IMG/VR virus record: IMGVR_UViG_3300025120_000029
Source of the DNA: an uncultured virus (IMG/VR IMGVR_UViG_3300025120_000029)
Taxonomy: Duplodnaviria > Heunggongvirae > Uroviricota > Caudoviricetes
Length of the DNA: 20,000 nt
Reading direction: 5' to 3' (one strand)
Shown here piece after piece: positions 1 to 19,028 of this stretch. Under the pieces are notes generated by a model. It was given only the letters and a program-made list of their open reading frames with translations. It made no database searches and was not told where the DNA came from. A program made the position numbers and the translations under genes. Position 1 is the stretch's first letter, and every line of letters begins with the position of its first letter.

Positions 1-2537
1 CTATTAACTACTGAGGCAGGACCATTTAGTTCAATTAATACTGCATTAATATTATTTATTAAATATCTTTGTGTAGCATTTAATTGTTCTATTAAACCTT
101 TGTTTTGTTTAAAGCTATACAAACCCTCAAAGGTTGTCATAAATCTATTAAAACCTAATACTTTATTAATAAAACCATCTTCTTTGACATTATCTGGATT
201 ACTAATATAATCTTTGTATTCTTTCATTTGTCTTAATGAATCCTGCAACAATGTTGTATATGTAGTAGATATATCTTTATTATTTTCTGGATCAATCAAT
301 GCTAGATCTATAATAGCTAAAGTATTATCTATTTGTTCTTTAGCTTCTGCACTACTTCTTTCCATGTAGATATTACTTTTTACTTTGTCTAACATTTCTT
401 GTTTAGTAACAATAGCTAATCTATAATCTTTGATTGCACCAAATACAGAACTTAAAGCTACATTTTCATATGGATCTACAACTTCTATGTCTTCCATTAA
501 TGCATCTTCTATTTCTTCTTTTCTTGAATCATATGCAATTCCATCAGTACCACCTTCGTCTAATTTTTGATCTAGCATTTCTCCTTCAACATTATAAACT
601 GTCTCAGGAATTAAATAGTCTACATTAATACCATTATCCATTTCATTATGCGGAACTGTACTTGTATATTCTAGTTTAGGGAGTGTAGATATATCATCAT
701 TTATTTGAATATTTATAGTTGATCTAGCAAATTTATCCATATCCACCTTATATCCCATGTTGGTAGCCATTCTAGCTATAAGATTTATCTGAATAGCATC
801 TTGTACTCTAAGAGGTAGCTCAGAAACATTATTATTTTTTAATCTGTTACCAGATGCTAATGGAACTAAGACATCTTCATATCCAGATGCTTGATCAGAA
901 TTAATTATATTAATTTTTATAATTTTTAAATTACCAAACTTATCAACTAATACTATATCTGCTTTTGCAGCAACATTAGTTTTAGGGTCAGAAAAAATAA
1001 CATTAGTTAATATAACATCACTATCATTTTTGATTGTTACAATATCAGCTTTAATGTTTTCAAATGCTGCTTGTGCTAATTCTTTGTCCAATGATAAACC
1101 TTCAGATATTTCTTCAAAAGTTTTATATGATGCCACTGCATCAACTATAGTACTAATATCATTTTTAATTGCTGTAGAAAACTTATCAGTTTTACCTATA
1201 ACCTCACCAGCTGATTGATATGCTTCTCTTGTATTTATATCATAAAAAGTATTATTGTCTTTGTTAAGAACCACTAGGTTGTTAATAAAGTTATTAGGTG
1301 TGTTAGCAGATAATGAATCTGATAAAGCAGCTGTTTCTTTTATATTATGAAACATTTCATTAATAACTGTTTTTTGTTGGTCTGTCCTAGAAGACTTCAA
1401 AGCTTGATTTACTAAACTTTGTTTTTCTGGTGTAAGATTATATCTTACTCTACCATTGATAGATTGACCTGTTTCAAAAGATATACCTGAAGTATTTAAT
1501 AACTTAGCTACGTCAGACAAAGTTAGATCAGATCTTATTGCTTGTACTGGTAATTTTCTACCAGTTATATATTGATTAAGGTTTTCAATTATATTTTTAA
1601 ACCACTTAAGCAATTCTTCTATACTATTTAAAAAAGACTGTGTAGGACTTTCTTCATACTCTTTATTAAAATGTCTTGACAAAGCTTGAGTAACTACTTC
1701 CATTTCCCTTTCCTCTGCAGTTATATTTCTTTTCTTATTATATGCATCTTCTATTTGTTGAGTCATCTCAGGAAACATACGTCTAGATTCATCTAATAAA
1801 GTTTCATACAATGGAATGTTATCTACCTTTACTGCCTCTATAAAAGGATGTAGCATTTCTTCAATTAGTATTTCATCAGTGACTCTACCTTTAATTAAAA
1901 TAGCATTATTAGCAACATAAAAAGAATTAACCTGTGAAAAAGGTACTTTAGCTTTTCTCCACTGTGGTAATAAATCATACTTCTTTTTTGCTTCTGTAGG
2001 TGTAAGTAATTGTACACTTACATCAGGAAACATCCTCATTAAATGTTTTACTACTTGCCTTGCTCTAGGGGTGTCCCAAGATCTTGATTGAGGAAGCATG
2101 TCTTTTGCTGTAAATAAATTACTATTAACTGACACTGCATATGTTTTAGGAGTCTTATCTATATTTAATGAGTCTGCTGGTAAATTATTAGCCTCTAAAT
2201 ATCTTTTTGCTCTTCTAACATTTGAATCTATTAATGAATCACTTATCTGTAATGTATCTTGATCAGTATTATTTATATAGTAAGAACCTTGATGACTATG
2301 AATAATCTTTTCTCTACTTAGATTATTTAATAAGGCTTGTCCAAATTCTTTTTGCTTTAAATTGTTTAAAGCTCTTTTATCTTTAACATATGAAGCAGCC
2401 TCTACTACAGTAGGAATTGCATCACTATCAGTTGATTCTTGCCAACTATTAATAACATTAGTAGTTATAAGATCTGTTTTATAAACTTCTAATAATGCTA
2501 TATACTCTGCCGTGTTTTTATTTGGACATTTTGCCAT
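1..2537 (-). CDS. Large virion cargo/ejection-type protein, 3'-truncated at the window edge (>845 aa), with degenerate zincin-like and degenerate PD-(D/E)xK-like domains
   Basis: Not in the ORF track because it has no stop inside the window. Manual translation from the ATG at 2537 is open to position 1: MAKCPNKNTAEYIALLEVYKTDLITTNVINSWQ...IEEMLHPF...AAKADIVLVDKFGNLKIIKIN...LNGPASVVN. It starts 2 nt after the TAG of the RNAP gene. A large protein next to the virion RNAP matches crAss-like gene order. Confidence 0.9.
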   Translation of the reverse strand, partial: MAKCPNKNTAEYIALLEVYKTDLITTNVINSWQESTDSDAIPTVVEAASYVKDKRALNNLKQKEFGQALLNNLSREKIIHSHQGSYYINNTDQDTLQISDSLIDSNVRRAKRYLEANNLPADSLNIDKTPKTYAVSVNSNLFTAKDMLPQSRSWDTPRARQVVKHLMRMFPDVSVQLLTPTEAKKKYDLLPQWRKAKVPFSQVNSFYVANNAILIKGRVTDEILIEEMLHPFIEAVKVDNIPLYETLLDESRRMFPEMTQQIEDAYNKKRNITAEEREMEVVTQALSRHFNKEYEESPTQSFLNSIEELLKWFKNIIENLNQYITGRKLPVQAIRSDLTLSDVAKLLNTSGISFETGQSINGRVRYNLTPEKQSLVNQALKSSRTDQQKTVINEMFHNIKETAALSDSLSANTPNNFINNLVVLNKDNNTFYDINTREAYQSAGEVIGKTDKFSTAIKNDISTIVDAVASYKTFEEISEGLSLDKELAQAAFENIKADIVTIKNDSDVILTNVIFSDPKTNVAAKADIVLVDKFGNLKIIKINIINSDQASGYEDVLVPLASGNRLKNNNVSELPLRVQDAIQINLIARMATNMGYKVDMDKFARSTINIQINDDISTLPKLEYTSTVPHNEMDNGINVDYLIPETVYNVEGEMLDQKLDEGGTDGIAYDSRKEEIEDALMEDIEVVDPYENVALSSVFGAIKDYRLAIVTKQEMLDKVKSNIYMERSSAEAKEQIDNTLAIIDLALIDPENNKDISTTYTTLLQDSLRQMKEYKDYISNPDNVKEDGFINKVLGFNRFMTTFEGLYSFKQNKGLIEQLNATQRYLINNINAVLIELNGPASVVN
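740..1280 (-). other. Degenerate PD-(D/E)xK (RecB/lambda-exonuclease/Cas4-like) nuclease-fold domain within the 1..2537 CDS
   Basis: Ordered motifs: NTFYD...YQSAGEVI, VILTNVIF, AAKADIVLVDKFGNLKIIKIN (cf. GxxDhhhxxxxGxhxIhD(F/Y)K), then QINLIARMATNMGY (cf. QLxxY...G). Several catalytic positions are substituted. Confidence 0.6.
1570..1960 (-). other. Zincin-like domain with variant motif EEMLH (HExxH-like) within the 1..2537 CDS
   Basis: NSFYVANNAILIKGRVTDEILIEEMLHPF (EEMLH at 1848-1862, aa 226-230), followed by EREMEVVTQAL and the amphipathic helix SFLNSIEELLKWFKNII. This layout mirrors the HEAFH domain of the RNAP protein. Confidence 0.55.
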
Positions 2538-2539
2538 AA

Positions 2540-5500
2540 CTATAAATTACATTTTTTAATTTGATCAATTAATTCTTGTGGGCTACCCCACATAGAGTTA
2601 GGATTCCTATCATACAAATCTAATAAATCTTCTAAACTATTAATATTATTTTCTCTTTTAAAGTTTTTAACCTCTGTACTAAATGAACCATCTTCTATAT
2701 TGCTATCCCAAAACTCTGTTATTTCAGGATGACTAATAAAAGGATCAAACATATCTAACTGACCTATCAACTCCTGTCTATTCTCACTAATAGGAAGCTC
2801 TTCTACTTCTAATATACCTAGTTCTTCAGAAGTAATATTGTCTGTTGCCTCTGCAATTGATGCCGCAATAGCATCTAATTCTGCAGTGTCTACTATATTT
2901 ACACTATCTATAATTACTGATTCGTCTGTTACATCCAGATTAATAGATTGATTACGGAATATTTGTGGTACAGTTTTACTTGTATCTTCTGTTTCTTTAA
3001 CAACCTCTGGTGTGCTTTTTGATACTTCAGGTTTCTCCATCATTTGTTTTAGAGTAGGTCTATTACCAAACATAAATCCTGCACCAAACTGTAAAGGAGA
3101 ACCTATCAAATCAACTGATGTTTTTTCTTGATCATTTCTTTGATATATAGTTGATTCTATACCGGTCTGACGGTCTATAGTATCCATCCTTTTTATTGCA
3201 ATTGAATCAGTTTCAGAATTAAACTTTCTTGGTAATAACTTAGCATTAGATGCAGATAGCAAATAGTTTTCTACAAAAGATGTCGTACCTCCAGCATCTG
3301 TAAATTCTTTAGATCTTAAATATTTTTCTGTAGAATTAATTTCAGATAAATAGTCTTCTAGAACATACGGGCTAATTGATTCTAATAAACCACCCGGTGC
3401 TAATTGTAAACCATCTTTAACCATAATATAATTTATAACAGTTTTTGCAAATTGTCTTGTATCAGGGTTATTGTATAATTTATTAAATGAGGTTTGTAGA
3501 TCATATTTTTGTAATCTATTTAGCTTTCTCCATGTGTTTGCTTGAGCTAGATACAAACCTGATCTATTACCCTTATCAGTTGGTTTGTATGTTGTAACAA
3601 AATCAAATAAAAAGAAATTGCCAGGATCACTTATTCTAAGTTGTTCTACTGCATGCCATACATTACCTTGTTCATTATCTTGTCCTGGATATAGTATACC
3701 GTTACTTAAAGGATTATTTTTATCTATATTTTGATATGCACTTAATGTGACAAATGCTAATACATCTTTTTTAACTTTTGTTCTAACGGCCTCACTATTC
3801 TTATATAAGTTTGTATCTAATCTTCCAACTAATTCTGATGTAATTCTTTTTACACCTGGTGTCTGTGATAAAAACATCTTTGGTAAAATATTTACATTTA
3901 TGTCTGATAGTTGTTCAGATAATCCAGATAGATATGAACTACTCAACATATTTCTTACCTTTATAAAATAAGGATTTTTTATAAAATCATTTATGCTTTC
4001 TACCCTTTGAGAAATACTATCAATGTTTTTTCCTAATCCATTGTTAAGACTTACTAGACTATTTAATTTAACCGTAAAATTAGATATAGTAATTACTTTT
4101 GCAAAAACCTGTAAGGCCCCTTGTAATTCAAGTACTTCTAAATTATCAGCTACTCCTCTTTCTAAAGCATCTTTATCAGGAACTATACCCTTTACTATTT
4201 TTCCTTTATCATCTCTTTCTATTAGATCATTTATTCTATCTCCAATAGAAGGAGATATACCATCACTATTATCAATTTGTCTATATATATCTTGTATAAT
4301 TTTTTGATTTAAAAGTAGTATAGAAGTTTCTAACGGAACACCAAGTTGAATCATATTTGATAACATACGTGTAGCATGAGCGTTCAAACCTAACTTACTT
4401 ACCAAAAACTCTTTAGCATTGTCTGTCATAGCAACTATTAGAGAAGACATTAAATCTTGTTTTCTCATTCCGTTTTCATTTAAAGTTCCACCAAAAGACT
4501 TATACTCTTTACCATCAAGCTCAAACTTTAAAGTACCTAAACCTATTTTATATTCTTTAAATAAAGACAAATATAAATTTGGTGAAACTACTGAACCAAT
4601 TGAAGCACCCTTATTGTTTGTAAAAGCAACAGTTTGTCCAGTAAGGGTATCTATATCTTTACCTGCTTGGTTAGTTCTTTCTGAAAAACCAGGTAATTTT
4701 CTAACACTCTCCCAAACATTCTTTAATAAATCTAAGTTAGACGGTCTATAAGCTATTGGATATGTACCTGATGTTAAATAATCATTACTTACTAATTGAC
4801 GTTTATAATCTACTAGTTTATTGCTTACAGGTGCTTCATAAGGAGCCTGCTTATTATCTTTTACAAATTGATTAAACTCACTTTGAGTAATAGGCATACC
4901 TAATACTTTTAAAGCACCAACAGCATTCTTACTAAAGCCAGCATTTTCAGCAGGTGTTTGATCTATATCAACTAATGAATCAGATATTATAACACCTTGT
5001 AGTTTATATAATTTTATAGCTTCAGAATATTGGTTTCCTGTTTCATTAACCTTTTTGTTTACATAATTAATATAACTAGAATAATTATTTTCATATGCTT
5101 TAAACTCACCTTTCTCTACATAAAACTCCTTCATGTGTATGTATGCTTGATCTATATCAAAATCTGCACCAGACACTTCTATAAGTTCATTTGAAAACAT
5201 TGCTGAACCTCCCATGAAGTTGGGTAAAAAATCTACAACCTTTACATTAAAGGCAGAATGATAGTCTTCACTAGGTATACGTACAGCATACATCTCACTA
5301 ACTACATCAGGTATAGTATTTTTATATCTTCTATATTTACTCTTATAAGCCAATAAGTCATTTACTTCTTTTGATTGAGGAGGCATAATTGCTTCAGAAT
5401 ATCTTTGACCTTGATATTCACCACCTTTATATTCTTTTAAGTTATATCTTAAACGGTCTACTATAATAACACCTTCAGCTGGTAAAGGATCACCAGTGTT

Positions 5501-8500
5501 TAATTCTTCAAGGCTTCTATTATCTAATGTAAAGTTTCCATTAAGAAATTCATTTTCTCTTATTACTTCTTGTCTATCAGGAGTAACTTTACCATTAAAG
5601 GTTTCTATACTAAATACTCTTCTGTATACATTCTTTCCTAATGATGATACTAATGCAACACTAGTTCCATTTACTTTTTCTTGAAAAACACCTTGACTAA
5701 AGTATGTCAAGAACAGCTGTTCATATTTACTTATAGTATAAGGGTTATCTAAATTATATTTAAGTTGATTGTTTTCATCAGAACTAAAAAATTCAATTAG
5801 ATTACTAGTTGATTGACCAGCCTGTAAAGAATTAACTGCATACTTAGAAAACAATACTAAGTTAGGACTTACTATCTTATTTAATTTTGATGCATCTATT
5901 TCTGATCTTACATCTTCTACATTAAATGTTAATTTAACTTTAGCATTATACTTTAATCTTGATCTATATTTTAAATCATTATTATAGTTTATAATTGTTT
6001 GTTGAATATCCTTATTTCTAGGATCTTGTTCAGATGTGTTTAGAGTTTTCATCTGACTTTGTAAAGTAATCTGTTTTTTATTTGATGGATTAATTTGTTG
6101 TAAGCCAAAGTACTTAGCATAAATAGTTGTGGCATTGTTTGTAAAACCACTAGGTTGACCATTTAAATCACTAATAGGATTTAAATTTTGTTTCATCATT
6201 TTTAGTGCTGATTCAGGTGCTGCTATACTTACAGTTTGATTTTCTTTATCTAATTCTTCTAAGTTGACTCTTAAGTTGTGTAGTTTTTCTTGACCTGGCT
6301 TAGCAACCCACATATCATCAGAGTTCTGCATAGATGTTAACTCTTTGGTTAAAGTAGTATAAGACATCTTTATATATGTTTCACCATCAAAATACGCATA
6401 CTTTTTAGAATTTAACATGTTGCCTTGAGATATAAGCTCACCAATCTCTTCCCATTGTAGAACTTCTCCTTGTTCAATTTTATTTAATGCAGCAGCTAAT
6501 GCTGGTGTCATTTCACCAATACCAAATTGAAAATGTCTAGTGGCTTTTACAGTACCATATACTTGTGCATCTGCAATCTGAATAGAATTTGAACTTAATC
6601 CAGACATTAATGTTGGCTCATTAAAAGCAACTAAATTTATTTTGTTTGTCTCATGCATTACCCCCAAACGTGGGTCAGTTAAATATGTTTCAGCAGGTAT
6701 AAAAGAGTTATTATTACCCTTTGCTCTTTTACTTTTATCAGTAAAGTCTTTTAAAACTTTAGCTTGATCACTTAAATAAAGCTCATTTAATGATTTAACA
6801 TTTAAGTAATTATTAAAAAACACTTGTTTAAGGTTATAAATAGGATCCATGTCAATTAGATTATACATAGCTGCAGTTGACTTAGCAGCTTCTTTAACAG
6901 CTCCAGTAGTACCTCTACTTATACCACGTACAATTTTCTTATCTATTCTATTTCTAACGTTTAGTGTATCTATTAAGTTATCAAACTCATTAAACTTACT
7001 ATCTAAGTTGGCTTCTAATTGTTTCTTAAATGACTTTTTATTTAGCTTAGCTGCTCTTAAAGCTTGTTCAAATGCAGCTGGCTCTTCTGAAAGTGCTTCT
7101 TTTATTAGCCCGCTTCTAGTATCTATATTTAAAAGTGTCTCATTATTGGCAAATGTTTTTGATCTAAACTCTCCAGTGTTATACCCTTCTATTACATCAG
7201 TAGTTCTATTTGGACCATTCTCTCTTACTATTCTATTGTACTCATTCTCAACAAAATTATAAAAGGCCTCTAATACTTCATCAGTAATAACGTCTCTTCC
7301 TTGTATTTTTTCTACTGCTTTTATAATAGGTAAAGTTGTTTGATCACCTGTATTTGAAGACTCCATAACTCTAATTAAATTTGGAGATATAGCAAATCTA
7401 CTATCTGTACCATTTACAGGATTCTTAACCAGTACAGATTTCAAAGGTTTTCTATTAAGAGAATTGTAAAAAGCTAAATAGTTGTTTATGTTAGTAACTA
7501 AAAATTCAGCAGGAGTATATTTCCCATAGTCTGTACTCTTTAATGTTAAACTAGATTTTACATCTAAGTCAGCAGATAAACTTCTTAAAACTTTTGTGCC
7601 AGATATTCTAGATATCTTTACTTGATTATTGTCTGCTAAAGCATTAAATGCAGGTGAGTTCAATAAAAAGTTATTACTTAAATAATCATCCTGTAATAAT
7701 CTTGCCCTCTCACTTGCAGAGTTTAATGCTCTTGTCTTTCTTAAATTAAATGTTGGTTGTTGATGTGAATTAACTAAATCATTATTTGAATTCTTAAATA
7801 CTGTAGCTCCAATTGTTTCATCAAATGATGCATTACCTAAAGCTAATTTTTTTAATTTGCTTTCTGCTCCCTCAGGTGAAAATAAATCTACTCCTTCTTT
7901 AATCAACTCAAAAAACACCTCTATATCATTAAGTGTCATTGGTTGTACATCAGGATGAAAAGATAGCAATTGTTCTTGTGCTTTAGTAAGATTCTCTCTT
8001 GCCATAAGCCTACTATAAGACATATAACCTGGACTAATAGAAATACCTAAATTATCAAATAAAAGTTTAGATAATTTTCTAGATCGTTCATTTAATGCAT
8101 TGTTTCTTATTGTAGTTTTTTTAGGTCTTAACTCTGTTTGTAATGTAACAAGTGCTTTTAATGCATCCTTTCTTATATTTAAATCATCTTGCCATAACTG
8201 TAGCTTAGATGAATATCCTTCTGACCATGAGTCTAATTGATTATTAGAATCATCTCTTTGAGATGCTGAATGAACAATTGAATTACCCAACATATCTCTT
8301 TGAGTAAAAAACCACTCTACTCTAAAGTTTGTAAATGAATTAAGTACTTTAATCAAAAAGTTTGGGTTAGTAATACCTTCAGGAAACTGTTCAAAAGTAA
8401 AGTCTTCTGTATAACTCTCTGGCATATTAATACCTGAGTTTTCAAATATTTGGTTTACAACAGCTTCAGTCTGTGGATTAGTTTGTGAAAAAGCATACAT

Positions 8501-11500
8501 AGCTTGTAGCATTTCTACTGGATCCTCAAGACCTTCTAATGATTTAAGCATTCCATTGTATACTACATTAGCATTAACAGGTACTGTAATAGGCGTACCA
8601 TTAACTAAAGTAGTATTACCAAAATAATCCTTTTCAATATATGTTACTGTTCCTATGTACTTTCTTACTGCAGCAGGTAAATTATCTAAACCACCACTAA
8701 GATATGTTTCTTTACCATACTGCTGTACAGTTCTTAAACCTTCATTATCTATAAACTCATCATTTCTTTCTACTTGTTGTGCTGACTGTAGATCTATTAT
8801 ATCTAATACGTCTGTAACAGATTGTTTTATTTGAGGAATAAAATCTTCAAATGCTGCTGTAAGCAACTTAAGCATGTCATGCTCTTTGCTTCCTTCTAAA
8901 AATTGTGAGTTAGCATTACTAAATACATCATATGTCTCAGCAAACTCATCAACTATAACATCTAGTTCTTCATCTTGATTGAACTTTAGCTTTTCTTCTG
9001 TAGGTATAAAATTAAATTTTCTATCTATTAACACTCCTGCCATAGAAGATATTATACCATTTGCTACAAAGCTTGGTACATATAGCTCACCTATACCAGC
9101 ATTTCTATCTACCATTTGATATGGTATAAGTTTGTTAGCTTCAACAGATGATCCTAAAGTAGTAAACTCATTTGTTGCTATAGGAGCAGATTGAAATTTA
9201 CCTCCATCTATGTTTTCAAATAATGAAGTTAGTTCATTTTTATAGAATTGATTTAGTACTCCTTTAATCCAATCTAATATTTTTGTAAACAAAGATTTTA
9301 CTTCTGAAGAAGTCTTAGTGTTTTTTGGTCCAGTTTTAAACAGCTCAAACTGATCTGCCATATATTCTTCAAAGTATTCTCTTTCTAATCTCTCTTGACT
9401 CATATTAGTATATGTATCAGCAGAGTTTCTAAATTTTTGTAATTCAGATGCTAGACTTTTTCCTTCCTTTCTTAGGTTGGCTCTTTGTTCTTTTCTGGCT
9501 ATTCTTAAATACTTAGCTTGTTCTTGTGGCGTAAGTATCATTCTGTATACACCGTGGAAAGCCTCATGATATCTAAATGGACTATTTGCTCCTGTGTATA
9601 TAGTTCCTGAAACATCAAGTCCACCAGCTATATCATTTATGTTTAAAACAAATGATCCTACACGTGTACCTGTAGTTATTAAATTACTTCTTAGTGTAGC
9701 TATATCAGCTATACCTATATAATCAGGTAATGTTTGTGAAGCCCATACAGAAAAAGAATCAATACTTTCTACATCAGTAGAGTTAAAAGATCCTTTAACA
9801 ATCTTATTAGCACCTCTTAGTTCATCTCTTTTCTTAAATAAATCTTGTAGTTCCTTGTTTTCTTTATATGCTTGTCTTAATCTCTTCCTATTTGTAGGAC
9901 CGTACTGATCTTCTAATTGAGCTTTTAATATGCTTATCTTAGTTAAAATAGAATTTAAATCACTTACCTCTTCTAAAACTTCTACCTCTTCTGCTATATC
10001 TGGTAATACTTCTACATTCTCTGGTGCACTTTCTTCTATTAAAGGTGTGACAGATATGTTACCTTTAGATAACTCTCTTCCAATTGATTTAGGATTAGCT
10101 GTTGTTAAAAGTCTAAATCCTTTTCTTAATTGATTAGGGTCTATAGCTGTTTCCAAGTCTACTAAGAAATCAGTTATACTTGCGTCTTCTGCTATAGATG
10201 TTGTAAAGTTTTTTAAAGATATTGTACCCTCTCCTAAATTTTCATCTCCATTAATTTTATCTAACAAAAGTTGTATTAAATCTTGTGGTGATTTTCTTGT
10301 TTCTTCTGCAACACCTAGATTAAGATCTGCCGGATATAAATATTGTGTCTTTCCTGTCTGCTTATATAATGCACCACCTAATGTTCTGTTTTCATTAGCT
10401 ATAGCATCTTTAACTCTCATTCTAATATTACCATACTGATCTACATCTAAAAATACTTTTCTTTTAGATCCAGGTTTGCTTGTTATAAATATTTTACTTA
10501 AAGTTTCTTTATTAAACTCTTCATTAAAGTTTATGTCTTTTGGTTTTTTATCTTTATCAAGATTGCTTTCTACAGTTGTCTGAGCTCTATTGATAAGTCT
10601 TAAAAGTTCTATGTCTAAGTCTACTTTCTGTTGTAATTTTGGTTTTGAAGTAACAACTGAATAAACTCCATTAGGCTGCTTAAGAACAACCATATATCTA
10701 TTAGTTCCGCCCTCTACACTTTGTTTCCATAAGCCGTTTCTTTTTAATGCAGCTTCAGTCTCTTCTCTTAACACATCTAATGCATCACCTTCTAAATTAC
10801 TAATAACTTTTGGTGCTGAATTATTTCCTCCTACACTAATATCATATATTAAATAGTTACCTAAACCATCAGAACTATATTTTAAATCTTTTAATGAAGT
10901 AAAAGTATTTGGTGATGTATAGTTATCATAACCCTCAAATAAATTTATTCTTATTCCATCTGGTAATTCACCAAATATAGCCTCTCCTCTACCATCTTGA
11001 TTAGCTAGTTTTTGTATTGCTTGATTTAAAACTGCAGCCTTAGCAAAATTTTCTTGTATATATTGTAGAGTCTGCACACCAGGTGATAAATTAGATTGAG
11101 AATCTATTTCCACTCCAGTTAAGTCTTTATCAAATTTAATTACACTCTTCATAAACTCTACATCAAAGTCATGTGGCATAACTGCTTTTCCATCTTTATC
11201 AAAAAAACTGAATCTTTGACTTGGTAAATATGCAAATACATTATTAGCTGATTCTTCTAGTCTAGTTATATCAGGATTTGTATCATATAAGTTATTGATC
11301 TTATCTATAACATTAACATCAATAACTTGTATTCCTATATTATAACTATTAGTATTCTCTTTTATATAAGGATTAGGTTTTAATCCATCAGCAGGTATTA
11401 CATAATTTTTTGATGGTGATTGTGTTACTGGTGTTATAAATAAATTTAATCCATTTAGTTCTTCTGTAGTTAAATTACTAATAATTAAATCTGTTCTTTC

Positions 11501-14500
11501 ATTAGCACTGTCTTTAGGCTCAGTAAAATTATTTTTATGTGACCATGCCTCTATCATTTCATTAGGGCGTATTTTAGAATAAGTTTTACCTAAACTATCA
11601 AAATTAATTGGTGCTGCTAAAACAAAATTATTTATAAAGTCTTGTTCTGAAATAGGTATTGAGTTCTCTAGGTTAGTATAATAGTCATTACTAAACTTAT
11701 TAAAAGGAATAATAAATATACTTTGTTGAGAGCCTTTATCAAATGATGTTTTACCTGTATTAACTACAAATACTTCCCCTTGCTTATTAATTATTCTTTC
11801 ATTCTTACTTATAGATAGCCCATTTATTCCACCAAATCTATATACTCCTCCTGTATCAACCTCTTTTTCTAATTTTTCAGCAGCTTGAATTGCATCAGCT
11901 TTTATACTATATACACCTAAACTATTGGCACCAATAATTTGTCTAAGCTCTTGAGATATCTTGTTACCTTTCTTATCTAGTATTGTATAAATAGATGTAT
12001 TTGCTTTATCTCTTTTATTTATAACCTTTTCTTCTACATCAACTATTGCCCCTTCAAAAATAATATTTGAAGGCTTCTGTCTTACTGTTTGAAAAATAGA
12101 CAGATTTAAATTTAATTGATCTAGTATATTTAATATATCTGCATTCTCTGCTGCAGGTCCGTTTATAAAATCTTGAAAGCCTGTTTCATTTTTTATATCA
12201 CTCTCTGTTGGAATTAATTCTGCAACCTGACCATTAACCAATACTGGATATCCTTTTGACCATATTTTCTTAATAGCATCATAGGCTGTTTGTATGTTAA
12301 TCCCAGCAGCGCTTTCTTTCCATTCTTCTATACTTAATGAATCTCTATTAGGTATAGCCTGATATTGTCTAAACTGGTCTTCTAATGTTCTATTTAATAC
12401 AACAGAATTGATTGTTGGTATTACTTCTACATTTTCTATACCAGCATCATCTAAAATCTGATTAACATCCTTTGCACTCTCATCAGCAACTTCTTCTTGT
12501 GACCTCTCTGCTTTTGCAAGTTCTTCTGTTTGTAGATTATAACTATTTATTATTGGATTAATTTTATTATTGATAATTATAGCATCTTCCAGTATAGATG
12601 GATCTAGTAATCTGCCTGCAAATAAATATGAATTTGACTGGTCTATTGAAGATGTTTCTCCTGTTTCTAAAAAAACTTGAGTAGCTTCCGGTGTTAAATA
12701 AACATCTTCTGCAGCTAAACTATTTAGCATCTGGTTTTGTTTATCTAATACTAGCTGGGCTTTAGTTTGTTCTATTATTATTTGTTTTTGATTAGCCTCT
12801 AATACTTTAAAATATTCTGCAGATCTATTTATTAAGTCTTCCATTTTATTAGGATCTAATAAATAATCTATAGTATTGTTAAACAAGAATGCATCTTGAG
12901 ATAAAGCTGCGTAGTCTACTATTTCATTAATTGCATTATCCACTGCATCAGCATCAACAAACGTTCCTTTAGAAGCAGCTAATGAATTCAAATAGTTTTC
13001 TATTGGGCCCTTTAACTTATTCTTTTTACGCTGATCAAAAAATCCTTTTGCTGTTAGATTATCATTATATACTTTATTAATTCTATCTAGATTCTTTTTC
13101 CTTCTTTTCTTTTCCTTAAGAGATTTTTTATTTCTCTTAATTGCAATCTCATCTAATCCAGATTCATTATTAGCATTTTGTTCTAGTATTAATATCTCTT
13201 GTTGTAATCTATCTACTTCTACTTCTAAAGATTCTTTATCTAATAAAGGTGTAACATCATTAGCAGCCATATTACCAAACAATGGAGTAGACTCTAATGA
13301 CTGAGCAATTTTTACTTTTCTATTTAGTGCATCTTTAAATGCATTCTGAGTAAACATATAAAACATTTCTTGATGTTCATATGCCTTTTTTAATCTTTGC
13401 TCATCTCTATATTTTCTTGTTCCAGGCGTAAACATTTCTGGCTTGTATCTAGGTTTAAATATGCTTTTCTTATTATTAAACATATCACCATACTCAGTAA
13501 TAAGATCTAATTGTTTTTGTATCTTTGATCTTACTTGTTCTATACTACCATAATCCTTTTTAGGAAATGCCTCACCTAAAGCTTTATCATCAAGCTGACT
13601 AAAATCTACCATCTCTTGTTGATAAAATCCTATTGAGCCTTTTTTATATTTATCATGTAAATTTTTAAACTCTAAGAAATTTCTACCATTAAAGTAATCA
13701 TACTTATCATTCCTTGAAATAGCATCATCCATAGCATTGGATGTTTGTTTCATAGTTGACATCATTAGCTGATCATTATTTAAGATAGCATCTAAACCAT
13801 CTACACCTTTTTCAGACATATCTTCTGATTGGCGTATAATATCTGCTATTACTTTTTCCTCTGCTGTTCTTGCGTTTGCATAATCCGCTCTAGAAGCTTT
13901 ACTTCTCAAAGCATAGAGTTTAGGAACTTGTTGAAATAAAACATTTTGATAAGGCCCAGCTAAACCACCCATCAAAAATCCGGATAAAAATGTATTTAAT
14001 CCTTGTGCTGTAAACTGATCCTGTATACCATCCATTGCAAATGAACCATATAAATTCTTTGTACCTGCACCAGGCTCTCTAAGCAAGGCACCATAGTAGC
14101 CTTCATTAGTTGCAGCAATAGCTTCTTGTGAAACTTCTTGTAGTCCCTCTGCTATTCCTGCTGCACCGTATCTTAACATCATACCTCCAAAAACTCTTGG
14201 AGCATTTTTTATTCCACCAGCTGTAAATTGTCTAACAATATTTGTAGGAGTAGGCATACCTAAAAAAGTTGCACCCTTTTGATAAGTTCCTTTTAAAGCT
14301 TTTCCTGTAACAGCATCTACTAGTGGATTAGTTCTAAATACTTTTTCTGATAGATTCTTATATCCTCTTCTCCAACTTCCAAAGGCACCTCTTAAAACAA
14401 ACTTGTTTGATAAATATATTATACCAAAGTTTTGCATTTGTGTTCTAAATGCAGCTTGAGCAGCTTTTACTTTTGTATCAGATAGTTGATCTGCTGTAAT

Positions 14501-15703
14501 AGCTTTACCAGGATTTTGTTGTGCTAAATATTTTAAATGATTTTGTTCTACTCTATTACTAACCATACCAGCTTCTAGTTTAGCTTCAGATAAAGCAATA
14601 TTAAATTGTCTTATATCTCTATAGAAAGCACCAAAAGCATTACCACTTTTAGTAATATTAAATAAATTTTGTGCAGCATTACCTGTTGTTTGCCAATTCT
14701 TTATAGCATAAGTTAGTTCTGGTGCAACAAATCTTCCAAAAGCTTCTGCACCACCATAATAGAATTGTTTAGCGTTTTCAGCATTATTAAGTGTTCTAAC
14801 CAATGCTTCACCAGAACTTGCATATCTTTTTACATCAAATAAATTAGCAATAGCTTTTCCTGTCCTGACTAAATTTCTACCTGTGCCTGCCACAAAAGCA
14901 GCAAAACCTGCTGGTGCTCCTGCGCCTGTTGATGTTAATGCAGCTGATCCCATTGCTAACACTAACTCTTCTACTGCTATAGATGCAATAATACCTGCTG
15001 TATAACCAAAGCTTAAACCAGTATTAGTTAATAAACCAAAAGGTCCTCCTTTGCTTGTTGAACCTATTCTCATAGCATCTTCCATAGTATTTGCTGCTTC
15101 TAAGTCTGGAGCTGACCAATAACCATCTCCATCAAATGCATCTGCTATAGATCTATAAGAAGAACCAAGACCTATAGAAAATTGACTGCCTAATTGATTC
15201 CAAGCTCTAGAAAAATCATCATACTTGCTACTATTAGCATTATAAAAAGATTCATTGTTTGAATAAGGGTTAAAGCCTAACTCACTATAATTAGGACTAG
15301 CATAAAATCTATCAAAATTACTATTCTTAATATTACCATAATCTGGTGCAGCAGCCACTAAATTATTTTGTGATGGTGCGTTTGCTGTTGCTTTCATCTG
15401 CTCACCTAAACTAAGATCTGATATTTGAGTCTTAGATGGATTATATCCTATATCTAATAAACCAGGATTGTTGCTAGAAACATTACCAATTACTTCAGGA
15501 CCATACTTAAACATATCACGTTGATACCTGTCTACATTTAATAAAGCAGCTGGGTCAGCCATATTTAAAAAGTCTGGACCATATTGTTCTGTATCCATTA
15601 AAGACTGCATTGTCTTATATGGTTTAGCATCATTTACTAAATCAACCTTAGGATTGTTGCCTGTAAGGTTCTCCTGAAGGGCTTGTGGATCTTGGTTTTC
15701 CAT
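2540..15703 (-). CDS. Giant virion-associated DNA-dependent RNA polymerase (crAss-like two-barrel vRNAP) fused to a zincin peptidase and an N-terminal putative membrane/ejection region, 4387 aa
   Basis: Uninterrupted 13.2-kb ORF. Catalytic-loop motif GADFDID (DFDID at 5150-5164, aa 3514-3518) is preceded by AVRIP (R3475). Further polymerase-like motifs are DKSKR, ADAQ, SKK..YIKMS, SALK, GLQQ and MTDNAK. HEAFH lies at 9554-9568. DFDID is the catalytic motif of crAss-like vRNAPs such as phi14:2 gp66. Confidence 0.93.
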   Translation of the reverse strand: MENQDPQALQENLTGNNPKVDLVNDAKPYKTMQSLMDTEQYGPDFLNMADPAALLNVDRYQRDMFKYGPEVIGNVSSNNPGLLDIGYNPSKTQISDLSLGEQMKATANAPSQNNLVAAAPDYGNIKNSNFDRFYASPNYSELGFNPYSNNESFYNANSSKYDDFSRAWNQLGSQFSIGLGSSYRSIADAFDGDGYWSAPDLEAANTMEDAMRIGSTSKGGPFGLLTNTGLSFGYTAGIIASIAVEELVLAMGSAALTSTGAGAPAGFAAFVAGTGRNLVRTGKAIANLFDVKRYASSGEALVRTLNNAENAKQFYYGGAEAFGRFVAPELTYAIKNWQTTGNAAQNLFNITKSGNAFGAFYRDIRQFNIALSEAKLEAGMVSNRVEQNHLKYLAQQNPGKAITADQLSDTKVKAAQAAFRTQMQNFGIIYLSNKFVLRGAFGSWRRGYKNLSEKVFRTNPLVDAVTGKALKGTYQKGATFLGMPTPTNIVRQFTAGGIKNAPRVFGGMMLRYGAAGIAEGLQEVSQEAIAATNEGYYGALLREPGAGTKNLYGSFAMDGIQDQFTAQGLNTFLSGFLMGGLAGPYQNVLFQQVPKLYALRSKASRADYANARTAEEKVIADIIRQSEDMSEKGVDGLDAILNNDQLMMSTMKQTSNAMDDAISRNDKYDYFNGRNFLEFKNLHDKYKKGSIGFYQQEMVDFSQLDDKALGEAFPKKDYGSIEQVRSKIQKQLDLITEYGDMFNNKKSIFKPRYKPEMFTPGTRKYRDEQRLKKAYEHQEMFYMFTQNAFKDALNRKVKIAQSLESTPLFGNMAANDVTPLLDKESLEVEVDRLQQEILILEQNANNESGLDEIAIKRNKKSLKEKKRRKKNLDRINKVYNDNLTAKGFFDQRKKNKLKGPIENYLNSLAASKGTFVDADAVDNAINEIVDYAALSQDAFLFNNTIDYLLDPNKMEDLINRSAEYFKVLEANQKQIIIEQTKAQLVLDKQNQMLNSLAAEDVYLTPEATQVFLETGETSSIDQSNSYLFAGRLLDPSILEDAIIINNKINPIINSYNLQTEELAKAERSQEEVADESAKDVNQILDDAGIENVEVIPTINSVVLNRTLEDQFRQYQAIPNRDSLSIEEWKESAAGINIQTAYDAIKKIWSKGYPVLVNGQVAELIPTESDIKNETGFQDFINGPAAENADILNILDQLNLNLSIFQTVRQKPSNIIFEGAIVDVEEKVINKRDKANTSIYTILDKKGNKISQELRQIIGANSLGVYSIKADAIQAAEKLEKEVDTGGVYRFGGINGLSISKNERIINKQGEVFVVNTGKTSFDKGSQQSIFIIPFNKFSNDYYTNLENSIPISEQDFINNFVLAAPINFDSLGKTYSKIRPNEMIEAWSHKNNFTEPKDSANERTDLIISNLTTEELNGLNLFITPVTQSPSKNYVIPADGLKPNPYIKENTNSYNIGIQVIDVNVIDKINNLYDTNPDITRLEESANNVFAYLPSQRFSFFDKDGKAVMPHDFDVEFMKSVIKFDKDLTGVEIDSQSNLSPGVQTLQYIQENFAKAAVLNQAIQKLANQDGRGEAIFGELPDGIRINLFEGYDNYTSPNTFTSLKDLKYSSDGLGNYLIYDISVGGNNSAPKVISNLEGDALDVLREETEAALKRNGLWKQSVEGGTNRYMVVLKQPNGVYSVVTSKPKLQQKVDLDIELLRLINRAQTTVESNLDKDKKPKDINFNEEFNKETLSKIFITSKPGSKRKVFLDVDQYGNIRMRVKDAIANENRTLGGALYKQTGKTQYLYPADLNLGVAEETRKSPQDLIQLLLDKINGDENLGEGTISLKNFTTSIAEDASITDFLVDLETAIDPNQLRKGFRLLTTANPKSIGRELSKGNISVTPLIEESAPENVEVLPDIAEEVEVLEEVSDLNSILTKISILKAQLEDQYGPTNRKRLRQAYKENKELQDLFKKRDELRGANKIVKGSFNSTDVESIDSFSVWASQTLPDYIGIADIATLRSNLITTGTRVGSFVLNINDIAGGLDVSGTIYTGANSPFRYHEAFHGVYRMILTPQEQAKYLRIARKEQRANLRKEGKSLASELQKFRNSADTYTNMSQERLEREYFEEYMADQFELFKTGPKNTKTSSEVKSLFTKILDWIKGVLNQFYKNELTSLFENIDGGKFQSAPIATNEFTTLGSSVEANKLIPYQMVDRNAGIGELYVPSFVANGIISSMAGVLIDRKFNFIPTEEKLKFNQDEELDVIVDEFAETYDVFSNANSQFLEGSKEHDMLKLLTAAFEDFIPQIKQSVTDVLDIIDLQSAQQVERNDEFIDNEGLRTVQQYGKETYLSGGLDNLPAAVRKYIGTVTYIEKDYFGNTTLVNGTPITVPVNANVVYNGMLKSLEGLEDPVEMLQAMYAFSQTNPQTEAVVNQIFENSGINMPESYTEDFTFEQFPEGITNPNFLIKVLNSFTNFRVEWFFTQRDMLGNSIVHSASQRDDSNNQLDSWSEGYSSKLQLWQDDLNIRKDALKALVTLQTELRPKKTTIRNNALNERSRKLSKLLFDNLGISISPGYMSYSRLMARENLTKAQEQLLSFHPDVQPMTLNDIEVFFELIKEGVDLFSPEGAESKLKKLALGNASFDETIGATVFKNSNNDLVNSHQQPTFNLRKTRALNSASERARLLQDDYLSNNFLLNSPAFNALADNNQVKISRISGTKVLRSLSADLDVKSSLTLKSTDYGKYTPAEFLVTNINNYLAFYNSLNRKPLKSVLVKNPVNGTDSRFAISPNLIRVMESSNTGDQTTLPIIKAVEKIQGRDVITDEVLEAFYNFVENEYNRIVRENGPNRTTDVIEGYNTGEFRSKTFANNETLLNIDTRSGLIKEALSEEPAAFEQALRAAKLNKKSFKKQLEANLDSKFNEFDNLIDTLNVRNRIDKKIVRGISRGTTGAVKEAAKSTAAMYNLIDMDPIYNLKQVFFNNYLNVKSLNELYLSDQAKVLKDFTDKSKRAKGNNNSFIPAETYLTDPRLGVMHETNKINLVAFNEPTLMSGLSSNSIQIADAQVYGTVKATRHFQFGIGEMTPALAAALNKIEQGEVLQWEEIGELISQGNMLNSKKYAYFDGETYIKMSYTTLTKELTSMQNSDDMWVAKPGQEKLHNLRVNLEELDKENQTVSIAAPESALKMMKQNLNPISDLNGQPSGFTNNATTIYAKYFGLQQINPSNKKQITLQSQMKTLNTSEQDPRNKDIQQTIINYNNDLKYRSRLKYNAKVKLTFNVEDVRSEIDASKLNKIVSPNLVLFSKYAVNSLQAGQSTSNLIEFFSSDENNQLKYNLDNPYTISKYEQLFLTYFSQGVFQEKVNGTSVALVSSLGKNVYRRVFSIETFNGKVTPDRQEVIRENEFLNGNFTLDNRSLEELNTGDPLPAEGVIIVDRLRYNLKEYKGGEYQGQRYSEAIMPPQSKEVNDLLAYKSKYRRYKNTIPDVVSEMYAVRIPSEDYHSAFNVKVVDFLPNFMGGSAMFSNELIEVSGADFDIDQAYIHMKEFYVEKGEFKAYENNYSSYINYVNKKVNETGNQYSEAIKLYKLQGVIISDSLVDIDQTPAENAGFSKNAVGALKVLGMPITQSEFNQFVKDNKQAPYEAPVSNKLVDYKRQLVSNDYLTSGTYPIAYRPSNLDLLKNVWESVRKLPGFSERTNQAGKDIDTLTGQTVAFTNNKGASIGSVVSPNLYLSLFKEYKIGLGTLKFELDGKEYKSFGGTLNENGMRKQDLMSSLIVAMTDNAKEFLVSKLGLNAHATRMLSNMIQLGVPLETSILLLNQKIIQDIYRQIDNSDGISPSIGDRINDLIERDDKGKIVKGIVPDKDALERGVADNLEVLELQGALQVFAKVITISNFTVKLNSLVSLNNGLGKNIDSISQRVESINDFIKNPYFIKVRNMLSSSYLSGLSEQLSDINVNILPKMFLSQTPGVKRITSELVGRLDTNLYKNSEAVRTKVKKDVLAFVTLSAYQNIDKNNPLSNGILYPGQDNEQGNVWHAVEQLRISDPGNFFLFDFVTTYKPTDKGNRSGLYLAQANTWRKLNRLQKYDLQTSFNKLYNNPDTRQFAKTVINYIMVKDGLQLAPGGLLESISPYVLEDYLSEINSTEKYLRSKEFTDAGGTTSFVENYLLSASNAKLLPRKFNSETDSIAIKRMDTIDRQTGIESTIYQRNDQEKTSVDLIGSPLQFGAGFMFGNRPTLKQMMEKPEVSKSTPEVVKETEDTSKTVPQIFRNQSINLDVTDESVIIDSVNIVDTAELDAIAASIAEATDNITSEELGILEVEELPISENRQELIGQLDMFDPFISHPEITEFWDSNIEDGSFSTEVKNFKRENNINSLEDLLDLYDRNPNSMWGSPQELIDQIKKCNL
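4400..6760 (-). other. RNA polymerase catalytic core (two double-psi beta-barrel region); boundaries approximate
   Basis: DKSKR (~aa 2989), ADAQ (aa 3044-3047, nt 6563-6574), Lys-containing motifs, RIP (5273-5281), DFDID (5150-5164) and TDNAK (4412-4426), in the order expected for single-chain two-barrel polymerases. Confidence 0.8.
9230..9760 (-). other. Zincin-type metallopeptidase domain (HExxH...E) within the RNAP polyprotein
   Basis: GTIYTGANSPFRYHEAFHGVY (H2046-E-A-F-H2050), a downstream EEYMADQF (E2112/E2113, candidate third Zn ligand) and the helix SLFTKILDWIK. Zincin domains associated with crAss-like RNAP proteins are known. Confidence 0.8.
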
Positions 15704-15712
15704 ACTTACCTA

Positions 15713-19024: not shown

Positions 19025-19028
19025 AATT

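Follow-up and report, generated by a model that had tools for sequence, protein, structure and literature searches.

The closest precedent for the arrangement described here is found in the pre-ejectosome of cyanophage A4 (Anabaena phage A-4L), in which a disulfide between Cys1715 of gp27 and Cys5 of gp26 was resolved by cryo-EM (PNAS 2025, PMC12002296). According to the cited excerpts of that paper, the upstream protein docks by its C-terminal helix on the downstream one, and the bond is treated as a local stabiliser, not as a substitute for a peptide bond. In the A-4L record, the gp27 residue is the third from the end of a 1717-aa protein and the gp26 residue the fifth of a 1114-aa protein, and each is the sole cysteine of its chain. 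The locus analyzed here, a window of 20,000 nucleotides (the whole stretch of DNA that was read) from an uncultured marine crAss-like phage (IMG/VR record IMGVR_UViG_3300025120_000029), resembles A4 in that adjacent genes stand in the order of the ejection proteins, with a single cysteine near the C-terminus of the upstream protein and near the N-terminus of the downstream one. However, A4 belongs to the Saffermanviridae, its complex involves no polymerase and one link only, and no fission/fusion series has been described for it; BLASTP comparison of A4 gp27/gp26 with the proteins of this phage gave no match at E up to 0.1.

Among the crassviruses themselves, homologues of the three proteins of the RNA-polymerase module (parts A, B and C) belong to the virion, and DNA and polymerase enter the cell together (preprint 10.1101/2020.03.07.982082); the cargo has to unfold partly for its passage through the tail (PMC10172136). 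In the cited parts of these two sources, presence in the virion rests on mass spectrometry of phi14:2 and crAss001 only. The present locus is related to phi14:2 gp67-gp66-gp65 and to the crAss001 cargo proteins gp47, gp49 and gp50 by a homologous DFDID core, by the C-terminal third of part C and by the HExxH region of part A; as in the cultured crassviruses, a gp45-like cargo gene lies nearby, and the terminal-cysteine rule set out below also holds in those phages. Unlike in phi14:2 and crAss001, parts A and B are fused here, and one cysteine pair is therefore left in the module. According to the excerpts cited, crAss001 virions do form disulfides, in the tail and in gp57 (PMC10172136); in those portions of the preprint and of PMC10172136 the term 'cysteine' is absent and 'disulfide' is used for the tail proteins and gp57 only, and our literature searches found no description of the terminal-cysteine pattern in Crassvirales.

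A third comparison is provided by the Schitoviridae, whose ejection operon is free of cysteine (N4 gp50 vRNAP and DEV gp71-gp73; PMC11445570), which agrees with a first-pass annotation of this DNA, made from the letters alone, that had cited the N4 polymerase as lacking cysteine. The cited parts of the same source describe the suppression as essentially total, attribute the rare cysteines to annotation errors, and ascribe the suppression itself to passage through the periplasm. The present phage likewise has giant, most likely injected proteins, including a virion polymerase, in which cysteine is strongly suppressed, but it retains two conserved cysteines at facing termini, and its polymerase is of an unrelated type.

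The cysteine-poor block and its polymerase

The four minus-strand open reading frames of the window (304 aa, open at the 5' end; 1103 aa; 4387 aa; and 845 aa, open at the 3' end) contain two cysteines in 6,639 residues, compared to about 79 cysteine codons predicted from the codon-position base composition. One is Cys4385 of the 4387-aa polymerase protein, which ends in QIKKCNL, and the other is Cys4 of the downstream protein, which begins with MAKCPN (Table 1). Both are encoded by TGT, each follows a lysine, and the stop codon TAG of the first gene is separated by 2 nt from the ATG of the next. The first-pass annotation had stated that the only two cysteines in about 6,640 codons face each other across this junction, with the genes 2 nt apart and a lysine before each cysteine, and both the count and the direct reading of the sequence agree with it. 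It had also named further cysteines in the part of the downstream protein beyond the window as an observation that would speak against a link; in the whole genome, where this protein is 1,929 aa long, Cys4 is its sole cysteine, and the 1,084 residues beyond the window contain none.

The cysteine-poor block comprises six consecutive genes (1568, 841, 934, 1103, 4387 and 1929 aa; 10,762 aa in total) with two cysteines (0.019%), as opposed to 252 cysteines in 22,279 aa (1.13%) for the remaining open reading frames of at least 100 aa in the genome, a rate at which about 122 cysteines would be expected in the block. If two cysteines were placed randomly in the block, the probability that both would lie within 5 residues of these facing termini is about 4e-7, and about 2e-6 for the same proximity at any of its 5 junctions. 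Histidine is also depleted in the block (0.59% vs 1.52%). The next gene (400 aa) has a single cysteine, Cys10, which sits in a signal peptide and is unrelated to the terminal pair.

Table 1. Features of the module and of the neighbouring cargo genes, in window coordinates.
Feature	Position	Strand	Basis
Part C gene, first 845 codons of 1,929 aa; one Cys; continues to genome C1:55079	3..2537	-	ORF and whole genome
Conserved N-terminal motif of part C, M-A-K-C-P-N-K-N-T-x-E-Y-x-A-L	2493..2537	-	alignment
Cys4 codon (TGT) of the 1,929-aa protein (module part C)	2526..2528	-	sequence
4387-aa gene, fusion of module part A (N-terminal) and part B (virion RNA polymerase); one Cys	2540..15703	-	motifs and homology
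Last 70 residues of the polymerase protein, small conserved motif FWD..I...NNI.SLE..I..Y....E.F.D.IK.C.L	2543..2752	-	alignment
Cys4385 codon (TGT), 3rd residue from the C-terminus of the 4387-aa protein	2549..2551	-	sequence
DFDID catalytic motif of crAss-type RNA polymerase	5150..5164	-	motif at residue 3514
Fused A/B junction zone (approximate), residues ~2060-2230; Cys-free	9014..9526	-	homology
HEAFH (HExxH), in the part matching the C-terminal region of unfused A proteins	9554..9568	-	motif at residue 2046
1103-aa Cys-free cargo-block protein	15713..19024	-	ORF and Cys count
Last 304 codons of the 934-aa Cys-free cargo-block protein	19084..19998	-	ORF and whole genome

The identity of the 4387-aa protein as an RNA polymerase, assumed in the first-pass annotation, is confirmed by its motif and its homologues. 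DFDID occurs once in this protein (in phi14:2 gp66 it lies at 1361-1365; preprint 10.1101/2020.03.07.982082), residues 3300-3800 match 59 phage records by tblastn (best E 5e-13), with crAss-like phages, several of them annotated as RNA polymerase, among the matches listed, and the cr128_1 RNAP is collinear with it by BLASTP (E 6e-19). Upstream of the core, residues 2045-2175 match the C-terminal region of a crAss001-like A protein (5e-5), a Dulem virus A protein (8e-4) and the A+B protein of cr1_1 (9e-6); the far N-terminal part of A gave a weak match only (E 0.045). Judged by these motifs and matches, the protein combines parts A and B of the crAss virion RNA-polymerase module, which has three parts (gp67/gp66/gp65 in phi14:2), in one fused chain. 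The C-terminal third of part C is homologous to cr128_1 C (E 7.5e-25) and also matches a crAss001-like gp49 homologue (3.8e-23) and phi14:2 gp65 (8.8e-10), and this marine phage most likely packages and injects both giant proteins. Scans of the block proteins against Pfam and PHROGs yielded nothing usable (the sole match, DUF7365, was under the cut-off), tblastn searches of the phage collection with the two terminal 400-aa segments and with polymerase-protein residues 201-900 gave no match, no relevant PDB sequence was retrieved with the two giant proteins (4387 and 1,929 aa) or with the N-terminal alignment profile of part C (A1), and a protein atlas search with residues 1-400 of part C reached scores of 0.87 only, which is under the level for more than a lead.

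Conservation of the terminal cysteines in split and fused modules

Within the clade of this phage, both cysteines are kept in all 106 IMG/VR loci with a visible junction (110 loci examined), with exactly one cysteine per visible open reading frame in 105 of them. Among them are 62 distinct sequences, which form 19 clusters at 70% identity and share as little as 34% identity in pairwise comparison, and the peptide patterns used omitted the cysteine in two of the three scans. Homologues of the single proteins were sought with regions blind to the terminus, namely residues 1261-1926 of part C (120 listed of 268 matches) and the catalytic core of the polymerase (120 listed of 151 matches). Every full-length C homologue listed (114/114) has a cysteine within its first 8 residues and none besides, and the six N-terminally truncated ones have no cysteine, giving 114 cysteines in 228,878 aa. 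Among the 120 polymerase homologues listed (554,446 aa, 119 cysteines), 118 have a single cysteine no more than 6 residues from the C-terminus and none has an N-terminal one; the exceptions are P0156, with a single cysteine 17 residues from its end, and P0210 (3,930 aa), with no cysteine, which is apparently truncated since its sequence ends inside the core. The co-conservation of the pair, which the first-pass annotation had proposed as one check of its reading, holds at every junction seen and in nearly all proteins listed.

The codons themselves are less constant than the residues: TGT and TGC are both used, the flanking codons vary, and the intergenic gap ranges from -1 to 26 nt among relatives. 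In the crAss001-like phages, gene A lies on the other strand and well away from where B begins, and its product still has the C-terminal cysteine. On the evidence of these sequences, selection acts at the protein level on the terminal cysteines. In the N-terminal alignment of part C (A1, 18 sequences), C4, N6, N8, Y12 and L15 are invariant. On the polymerase side, a variable acidic linker precedes the conserved C-terminal ~70 residues, and the C-terminal cysteine is the only nearly invariant column in an alignment of the last 200 residues.

Split and fused modules were compared in 16 reference Crassvirales genomes and this genome (17 in all). A and B are split in 12 genomes and B and C in 12, and all 24 split junctions carry the cysteine pair, one member lying 1-9 residues from the end of the upstream protein and the other at position 3-5 of the downstream one; since the split and fused states follow families, these junctions represent few independent evolutionary events. 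In phi14:2, for example, gp67 ends in its one cysteine, gp66 has two, Cys3 and Cys2179, and gp65 has Cys3 alone. Fused forms are the A+B protein of this genome, cr1_1, cr50_1 and P0122; where such forms are poor in cysteine, the pair is missing. The A/B junction inside the 4387-aa protein has no cysteine, and P0122, in which A, B and C form a single chain of 4,520 aa, has none at all, consistent with the loss of the pair on gene fusion that the first-pass annotation had anticipated. Cysteine avoidance is incomplete, however, as the B proteins of gut phages have 1-8 internal cysteines and the fused B+C proteins of Intestiviridae have 6-15 in total. Local HMMs of the terminal 300-aa segments gave only insignificant domains at the B/C junction of the fused Intestiviridae proteins, and a cysteine-free B+C fusion junction is for this reason claimed for P0122 only.

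A putative end-to-end disulfide and the alternatives

We consider it likely that a putative head-to-tail disulfide stands in for the missing peptide bond at the A+B/C junction. Within the virion, such a link would run from the C-terminal end of the 4387-aa A+B protein to the start of the 1,929-aa part C, and the product would be one thread of 6,316 residues, like the single polyprotein of some relatives. The conserved N-terminal motif of part C would serve as the docking site for the terminal ~70 residues of the polymerase protein, carried on the flexible acidic linker, and the thiols would oxidise after sealing of the capsid or on release from the reducing cytoplasm. The tie would set a 1:1 stoichiometry, the proteins would exit N-to-C as one strand, and cytoplasmic reductants would afterwards part them.

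Co-folding of part C residues 1-400 and the 90-residue C-terminal end of the polymerase protein, as the first-pass annotation had suggested for the two termini, lends this contact weak support, with a score of 0.41 (runs 0.57, 0.41 and 0.01) against 0.00 for the best of three controls; the runs agree in at least 26% of contacts, and partner pLDDT is at least 67. Solved complexes attain the mark applied in 116 of 157 cases and mismatched pairs in 2 of 215, counts which hold only roughly here since our own alignments were used; at scores up to 0.60 it is reached by 18 of the 157 solved complexes and by both of the passing mismatches. The timing of oxidation counts against a disulfide, given that assembly takes place in the reducing cytoplasm and that gut crassviruses live without oxygen. 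The phage has a thioredoxin-fold open reading frame with a signal peptide and without CxxC, and glutaredoxin was not found in the phage, leaving no evident reductase for the link.

A metal site would need no oxidation in the cytoplasm, and it is conceivable, though improbable, that the two cysteines jointly bind a metal ion or merely stabilise a non-covalent docking interface. Either would fit the weakly supported co-folding contact and the N-terminal C-x-N-x-N...Y...L pattern, whose invariance beyond the cysteine suggests a structured docking site. However, only one cysteine is conserved per chain, across the order neither cysteine has a conserved His, Asp or Cys co-ligand beside it, the neighbours of the cysteines differ widely (KKC, LRC, IAC, SIC, QEC and TIC; MAKC, MSC and MSRNC), histidine itself is depleted in the block, and the same signature in cyanophage A4 is a disulfide.

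We give the same low probability to the reading that each terminal cysteine bonds another partner, either a copy of the same protein (as tail-to-tail or head-to-head dimers) or a cysteine of the portal or the capsid interior. About 6 copies of each RNAP-associated protein have been proposed per crAss001 virion (PMC10172136, cited in part), so that like-with-like pairing is sterically conceivable, and other virion proteins carry orphan near-terminal cysteines without a visible partner, as in the 861-aa protein of LMMB. The strict complementarity of the chain argues against this, as the first protein has no N-terminal cysteine (0/120 listed) and the last has no C-terminal one, and so does the disappearance of both members of the pair at a fused junction, since anchoring elsewhere would not predict their joint loss.

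More doubtful still is a role of the cysteines as processing signals or nucleophiles, whether as an inherited mark of a polyprotein protease, as an N-terminal nucleophile after trimming, or as a minimal trans-splicing or ligation site. The phi14:2 preprint (10.1101/2020.03.07.982082), in the part cited, proposes cleavage of fused polyproteins and a zincin protease domain in one partner, and HExxH motifs are present. But the fused forms lack these cysteines, so that cleavage would not depend on them, a conserved context around the cysteines is absent, and the 0-8 residues after the C-terminal and 2-4 before the N-terminal cysteine are far too few for intein halves. In the present proteins, a split intein was rejected on the same ground, with 2 residues after Cys4385 and 3 before Cys4, where halves would need tens of residues.

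Lipid attachment was likewise rejected at either terminus. A CaaX box has its cysteine exactly 4 residues from the C-terminus, and here the distance from the end is 3, and 1 to 9 in relatives; a bacterial lipoprotein has a signal peptide with a lipobox ahead of its cysteine, and here the cysteine occupies residue 3-5 and no hydrophobic leader precedes it. A programmed frameshift or readthrough joining the genes was also rejected, as the TAG-TT-ATG junction has other-frame stops just upstream and the variable gap in relatives keeps no frame relation. It is hardly credible that the pair arose by chance, persists as a neutral relic or acts as a signal at the nucleotide level at the gene junction, for although both codons stand in an AAATGT context 2 nt from the gene boundary in this window, the pair persists in 106/106 loci at identities down to 34%, with either codon, with variable flanks and gaps and with partner genes on opposite strands, and its position has the small chance probability given above.

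Extension of the disulfide reading to Crassvirales

For Crassvirales as a whole, we see about an even chance that the disulfide is a replaceable stand-in for a peptide bond, the pair being gained when A, B and C are split and lost when they are fused, so that the cargo would always be one thread, drawn through the tail in the N-to-C direction and severed in the host cytoplasm by reduction; this reduction would perhaps also switch the proteins on. Crassviruses are common in the sea and count among the most abundant human-gut phages, and the proposal bears on how, for each module, they store and inject protein amounting to about 1 megadalton. Should the rule hold, it would explain how splitting, fusion and strand change of the genes are tolerated without loss of function and how a 1:1:1 stoichiometry and the order of exit are kept, and the redox change at entry could free the polymerase. 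With the rule as a simple sequence signature, chained ejection proteins could also be recognised in further phages, A4 being one example.

The gene models of some reference genomes qualify the rule. The N-terminal cysteines of cr110_1 and crAss002 conform to it only with an internal in-frame Met start that gives MSC, and the B gene of IAS virus is annotated as two pieces, with ambiguous bases. Near the fused B/C junction, a lone cysteine may be a relic of the former pair, at residue 2220 in LMMB and at residue 2604 in cr110_1.

Two cysteines at one gene junction

On the minus strand of the window, four ORFs of 304 aa (open at the 5' end), 1103, 4387 and 845 aa (open at the 3' end) together hold exactly two cysteines in 6,639 residues, as the first-pass annotation had counted, whereas about 79 Cys codons would be expected from the base composition at each codon position. 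The two face each other across the junction between the 4387-aa polymerase protein and the downstream protein, C. In the whole genome (a virus record of 108,143 bp, estimated completeness 94%), the complete C protein is 1,929 aa in length and has Cys4 alone, so that the remainder beyond the window adds none. These genes belong to a Cys-poor block of six genes in a row (1568, 841, 934, 1103, 4387 and 1929 aa; total 10,762 aa). Since the remaining ORFs of at least 100 aa have 252 Cys in 22,279 aa (1.13%), about 122 would be expected in the block, and the probability that two randomly placed Cys fall within five residues of these two facing termini is about 4e-7. In the same block (genome C1:55079-87517, with window 1-20000 inside), His (0.59% vs 1.52%) and Trp (0.70% vs 1.22%) are also low, and Met is not depleted. 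Three ORFs very rich in Cys, in contrast to the block, are listed in the table.

Searches of Pfam, PHROGs and PDB sequences with the block proteins were blank. The 4387-aa protein has one occurrence of DFDID, at residue 3514, the defining motif of the crAss virion RNA polymerase, found at 1361-1365 of phi14:2 gp66 (10.1101/2020.03.07.982082). Residues 3300-3800 matched 59 phage records by tblastn (best E 5e-13), the matches listed being crAss-like phages, several annotated as RNA polymerase. Since residues 2002-4387 are collinear with the 2431-aa cr128_1 polymerase (offset near zero, E 6e-19) and the HEAFH-bearing residues 2045-2175 match the C-terminal region of the separate gp67-type (A) proteins of other crassviruses (crAss001-like A, residues 2156-2293 of 2341, E 5e-5; Dulem virus 41 A, residues 2326-2424 of 2474, E 8e-4), the 4387-aa protein is, on homology, A fused to the polymerase (B), with the junction around residues 2060-2230. 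Residues 2045-2175 also match the corresponding part of the cr1_1 fusion protein. In its C-terminal third, the 1,929-aa protein shows homology to the gp65-type protein (C) of cr128_1 (E 7.5e-25), a crAss001-like gp49 homologue (E 3.8e-23) and phi14:2 gp65 (E 8.8e-10), and this third also matches the C-terminal end of fused Intestiviridae B+C proteins; the 841-aa protein matches the gp45-type cargo protein (E 1e-10). Homologues of all three module proteins are reported as virion components, with the polymerase going into the host along with the DNA (10.1101/2020.03.07.982082). The crAss001 cargo consists of gp45, gp46, gp47, gp49 and gp50, partial unfolding being needed for exit via the tail (PMC10172136). 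The 1568-aa protein has two HExxH motifs (residues 527 and 1159) and was without a match in the Pfam scan. The plus-strand ORFs inside the polymerase gene are most likely shadow frames.

Conservation in the clade of the window

Three scans of IMG/VR, one with a pattern that included the Cys (MAKCPNKN) and two with patterns that did not, yielded 110 loci (L003-L112), some contigs being fetched twice. The proposed co-conservation of the facing Cys held throughout, both being present in 106 of 106 loci showing the junction, and in 105 of these each visible ORF had exactly one Cys; the exception, L082, carried one extra Cys in a stop-to-stop frame, 1,682 residues before its end. Among the 106 loci are 62 distinct sequences, falling into 36 clusters at 90% identity and 19 at 70%, with pairwise identity down to 34%. 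The upstream Cys is encoded by TGC in one clade and by TGT in all others; the codons flanking the junction Cys are variable, as is the intergenic gap, from -1 to 26 nt among relatives.

A collection of 5.8 billion proteins was searched twice with internal regions only, so that the queries were blind to the termini. With C residues 1261-1926 as the query, all 114 full-length homologues among the best 120 of 268 matches had a Cys in the first 8 residues and no other, and the remaining six of these, shorter and N-truncated, had none. With the polymerase core (residues 3300-3900), 118 of the best 120 of 151 matches had a single Cys, within the last 6 residues, and none of the 120 had an N-terminal Cys; the exceptions were P0156, whose single Cys lies 17 from the end, and P0210 (3,930 aa), which ends inside the polymerase core and has no Cys. 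Together, the two sets (best 120 each) comprise 783,324 residues and 233 Cys. Conservation is otherwise weak over the polymerase protein's last 200 residues (mean column identity 26%), which end in a variable acidic linker and then a small motif closing with the Cys, the sole nearly invariant column. The N-terminal motif of C is conserved, C4, N6, N8, Y12 and L15 being invariant. Precomputed Pfam matches absent from the window's proteins occur on some homologues of C (PF12705, PF18760) and of the polymerase (PF18760, PF25176, PF08719, PF13532, PF09397), namely P0018, P0019, P0023 and others; P0109, P0132; P0145 and others; and P0162, P0180-P0183, which suggests that some lineages have gained extra enzymatic domains by insertion into their injected proteins.

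Split and fused junctions across Crassvirales

The module was read in 16 reference genomes, and with the window added to the tally, the Cys pair was found at 24 of 24 split junctions. In Steigviridae and allies, A, B and C are all separate (table); the two annotated pieces of the IAS virus polymerase are probably a single gene interrupted by sequence errors. In the Intestiviridae (LMMB, cr110_1, cr8_1, cr3_1 and crAss002), where A is separate and B+C fused, A carries a near-terminal Cys (1-2 residues from the end) in 5/5, and the fused protein starts with MSC or MANNC in 3/5. For cr110_1 and crAss002, whose annotated frames place the first Cys at residue 17 or 35, counting from an in-frame Met further inside puts it at residue 3 (MSC), and the annotated starts are probably too far upstream. 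In the Suoliviridae (cr1_1, cr50_1, cr6_1 and cr125_1), where A+B is fused and C separate as in the window, the fused protein has a Cys 2-4 residues from its end and C has one at residue 3-5. Under table 11, cr6_1 and cr125_1 show 5 to 78 in-frame stops per annotated module or neighbouring cargo gene, so that a stop codon is recoded in the late genes of these Suoliviridae; their terminal Cys persist. Overall, no first module protein has an N-terminal Cys and no last one a C-terminal Cys, and the middle protein has both.

Where the chain is continuous, both members of the pair are missing together. The loss of Cys on gene fusion, anticipated in the first-pass annotation, is seen in the window's A+B protein, which has no internal Cys, the junction zone (residues ~2060-2230) included, and in the full fusion P0122 (4,520 aa; A, B and C parts all recognisable), which has zero. 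Other than the terminal Cys, the fused cr1_1 protein has just Cys 4026, and that of cr50_1 has Cys at 1137 and 3071, far from the junction; in Cys-richer fused proteins the junction could not be placed, and a lone relic Cys may persist there. Since split and fused states follow families, independent events are few, and the pairs of cr110_1 and crAss002 hinge on re-annotated starts. Further points against an inter-chain link (below) are that several gut lineages tolerate internal Cys and that orphan near-terminal Cys exist. Such unpaired Cys were seen in other Intestiviridae virion-block proteins, namely an 861-aa LMMB protein ending ...GKQSCR and small proteins after the stabilization protein with a C-G-G motif close to their C-terminus, and no facing partner was seen for them.

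Features and module proteins. Window, window coordinates; C1, whole-genome coordinates; L001, L002 and L126, loci of the same genome; other L numbers, fetched loci of the phages named.
Feature	Position	Strand	Description
Cys4385, polymerase protein	window codon 2549-2551	minus	...QIKKCNL; window translation
Cys4, C	window codon 2526-2528	minus	MAKCPN; window translation
ORFs in polymerase gene	window 4023-4307, 4419-4751, 6849-7262	plus	94-137 aa, wholly within gene, opposite strand
1568-aa protein, first of block	L002:5515-10218 = C1:82811-87517	minus	Cys-free
400-aa protein, gene after C	L001:787-1986 = C1:53783-54985	minus	N-terminal signal peptide holding its one Cys
139-aa thioredoxin-fold ORF	C1:53059-53478, in L126	minus	PF00085, E 5.4e-7, above cut-off
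Cys-rich ORF	C1:97824-98384	minus	186 aa, 13 Cys
Cys-rich ORF	C1:98402-100642	minus	746 aa, 23 Cys
Cys-rich ORF	C1:9710-10051	minus	113 aa, 8 Cys
phi14:2 module			gp67 (1797 aa): single Cys, last residue; gp66 (2180 aa): Cys3 + Cys2179 alone; gp65 (1421 aa): Cys3 alone
cr128_1 module			A: Cys2384 of 2387 alone; B: Cys 4, 1366, 1439, 2424 of 2431; C: Cys5 alone
PhiCrAssBcn1 module			A: Cys2339 of 2341 alone; B: Cys 5, 1530, 2600 of 2608; C: Cys5 alone
Dulem virus 41 module			A: Cys2471 of 2474 alone; B: Cys4, others, Cys2247 (last residue); C: Cys5 alone
DAC15 module			A: Cys2220 of 2222 alone; B: Cys5, others, Cys2265 (last residue); C: Cys4 + Cys619
cr111_1 module			A: Cys1636 of 1638 alone; B: Cys5, others, Cys2281 of 2283; C: Cys3 alone
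IAS virus module	polymerase L114:14435-23417		same terminal Cys, more internal Cys; B annotated as two overlapping genes (837, 2159 aa), ambiguous bases at boundary
cr110_1 B+C	L119:15999-29252		start probably 14 codons too far upstream
crAss002 B+C	L129:12996-25733		start probably 32 codons too far upstream
Unpaired near-C-terminal Cys	L115:4700-7285, L115:3786-4580, L119:3972-4778, L129:2301-3974		LMMB (L115), cr110_1 (L119), crAss002 (L129)

A candidate link between consecutive cargo proteins

DNA-level signals at the gene boundary fail as the cause of the Cys pair because crAss001-like phages encode A on the other strand, at a long distance from where B begins. The complementary Cys pattern matches the expectation for an inter-chain link between consecutive proteins, and a disulfide would be the simplest such link, since position rather than sequence context is conserved, no co-ligands are conserved, and cyanophage A4 shows the same signature for a disulfide seen by cryo-EM. 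In A4, the known case of one terminal disulfide between consecutive ejection proteins, gp27 Cys1715 is bonded to gp26 Cys5, with the gp27 C-terminal helix in a gp26 cleft (PMC12002296); in the A-4L record these are the sole Cys of the two proteins, like the window's pair. Cys suppression is known for injected proteins, the Schitoviridae virion RNA polymerase homologues having 0.00075% Cys, which was ascribed to passage through the periplasm (PMC11445570). Full-text literature searches found no description of the crassvirus terminal-Cys pattern, and the term 'cysteine' had 0 occurrences in the phi14:2 preprint (10.1101/2020.03.07.982082), the crAss001 atlas (PMC10172136) and the 2026 N4 paper. 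What is new is a conserved Cys pair that follows the splitting and joining of polymerase-module genes throughout a phage order.

Co-folding of C residues 1-400 with the final 90 residues of the polymerase protein scored 0.41 (runs 0.57, 0.41 and 0.01), against 0.00 for the best of three controls; at least 26% of contacts agreed between the runs, and partner pLDDT was at least 67. Of 157 solved complexes, 116 reached that mark, as did 2 of 215 mismatches; at 0.60 or under it was reached by just 18 of the 157 plus both passing mismatches, counts that are rough since our own alignments were used. The co-folding check suggested in the first-pass annotation thus gave the pairing weak support. The proposed terminal disulfide in crassviruses is read from sequences and predicted structure. 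The time and place of its oxidation would be hard to account for, which counts against it, the cytoplasm being reducing and the gut anoxic, although disulfides in crAss001 particles are reported in the tail and gp57 (PMC10172136). The linked chain may be ejected as one thread, which would be cut by reduction in the host cytoplasm, and a one-thread exit is consistent with proposals for crAss001 that gp45 leaves N-to-C and that its cargo unfolds in part (PMC10172136).

The product of the 139-aa ORF, which lies just downstream of the cargo block, resembles a secreted thioredoxin-like protein that is redox-inactive: it carries a signal peptide, and other residues (…EFWAEFNKDN…) stand in place of the CxxC active site.
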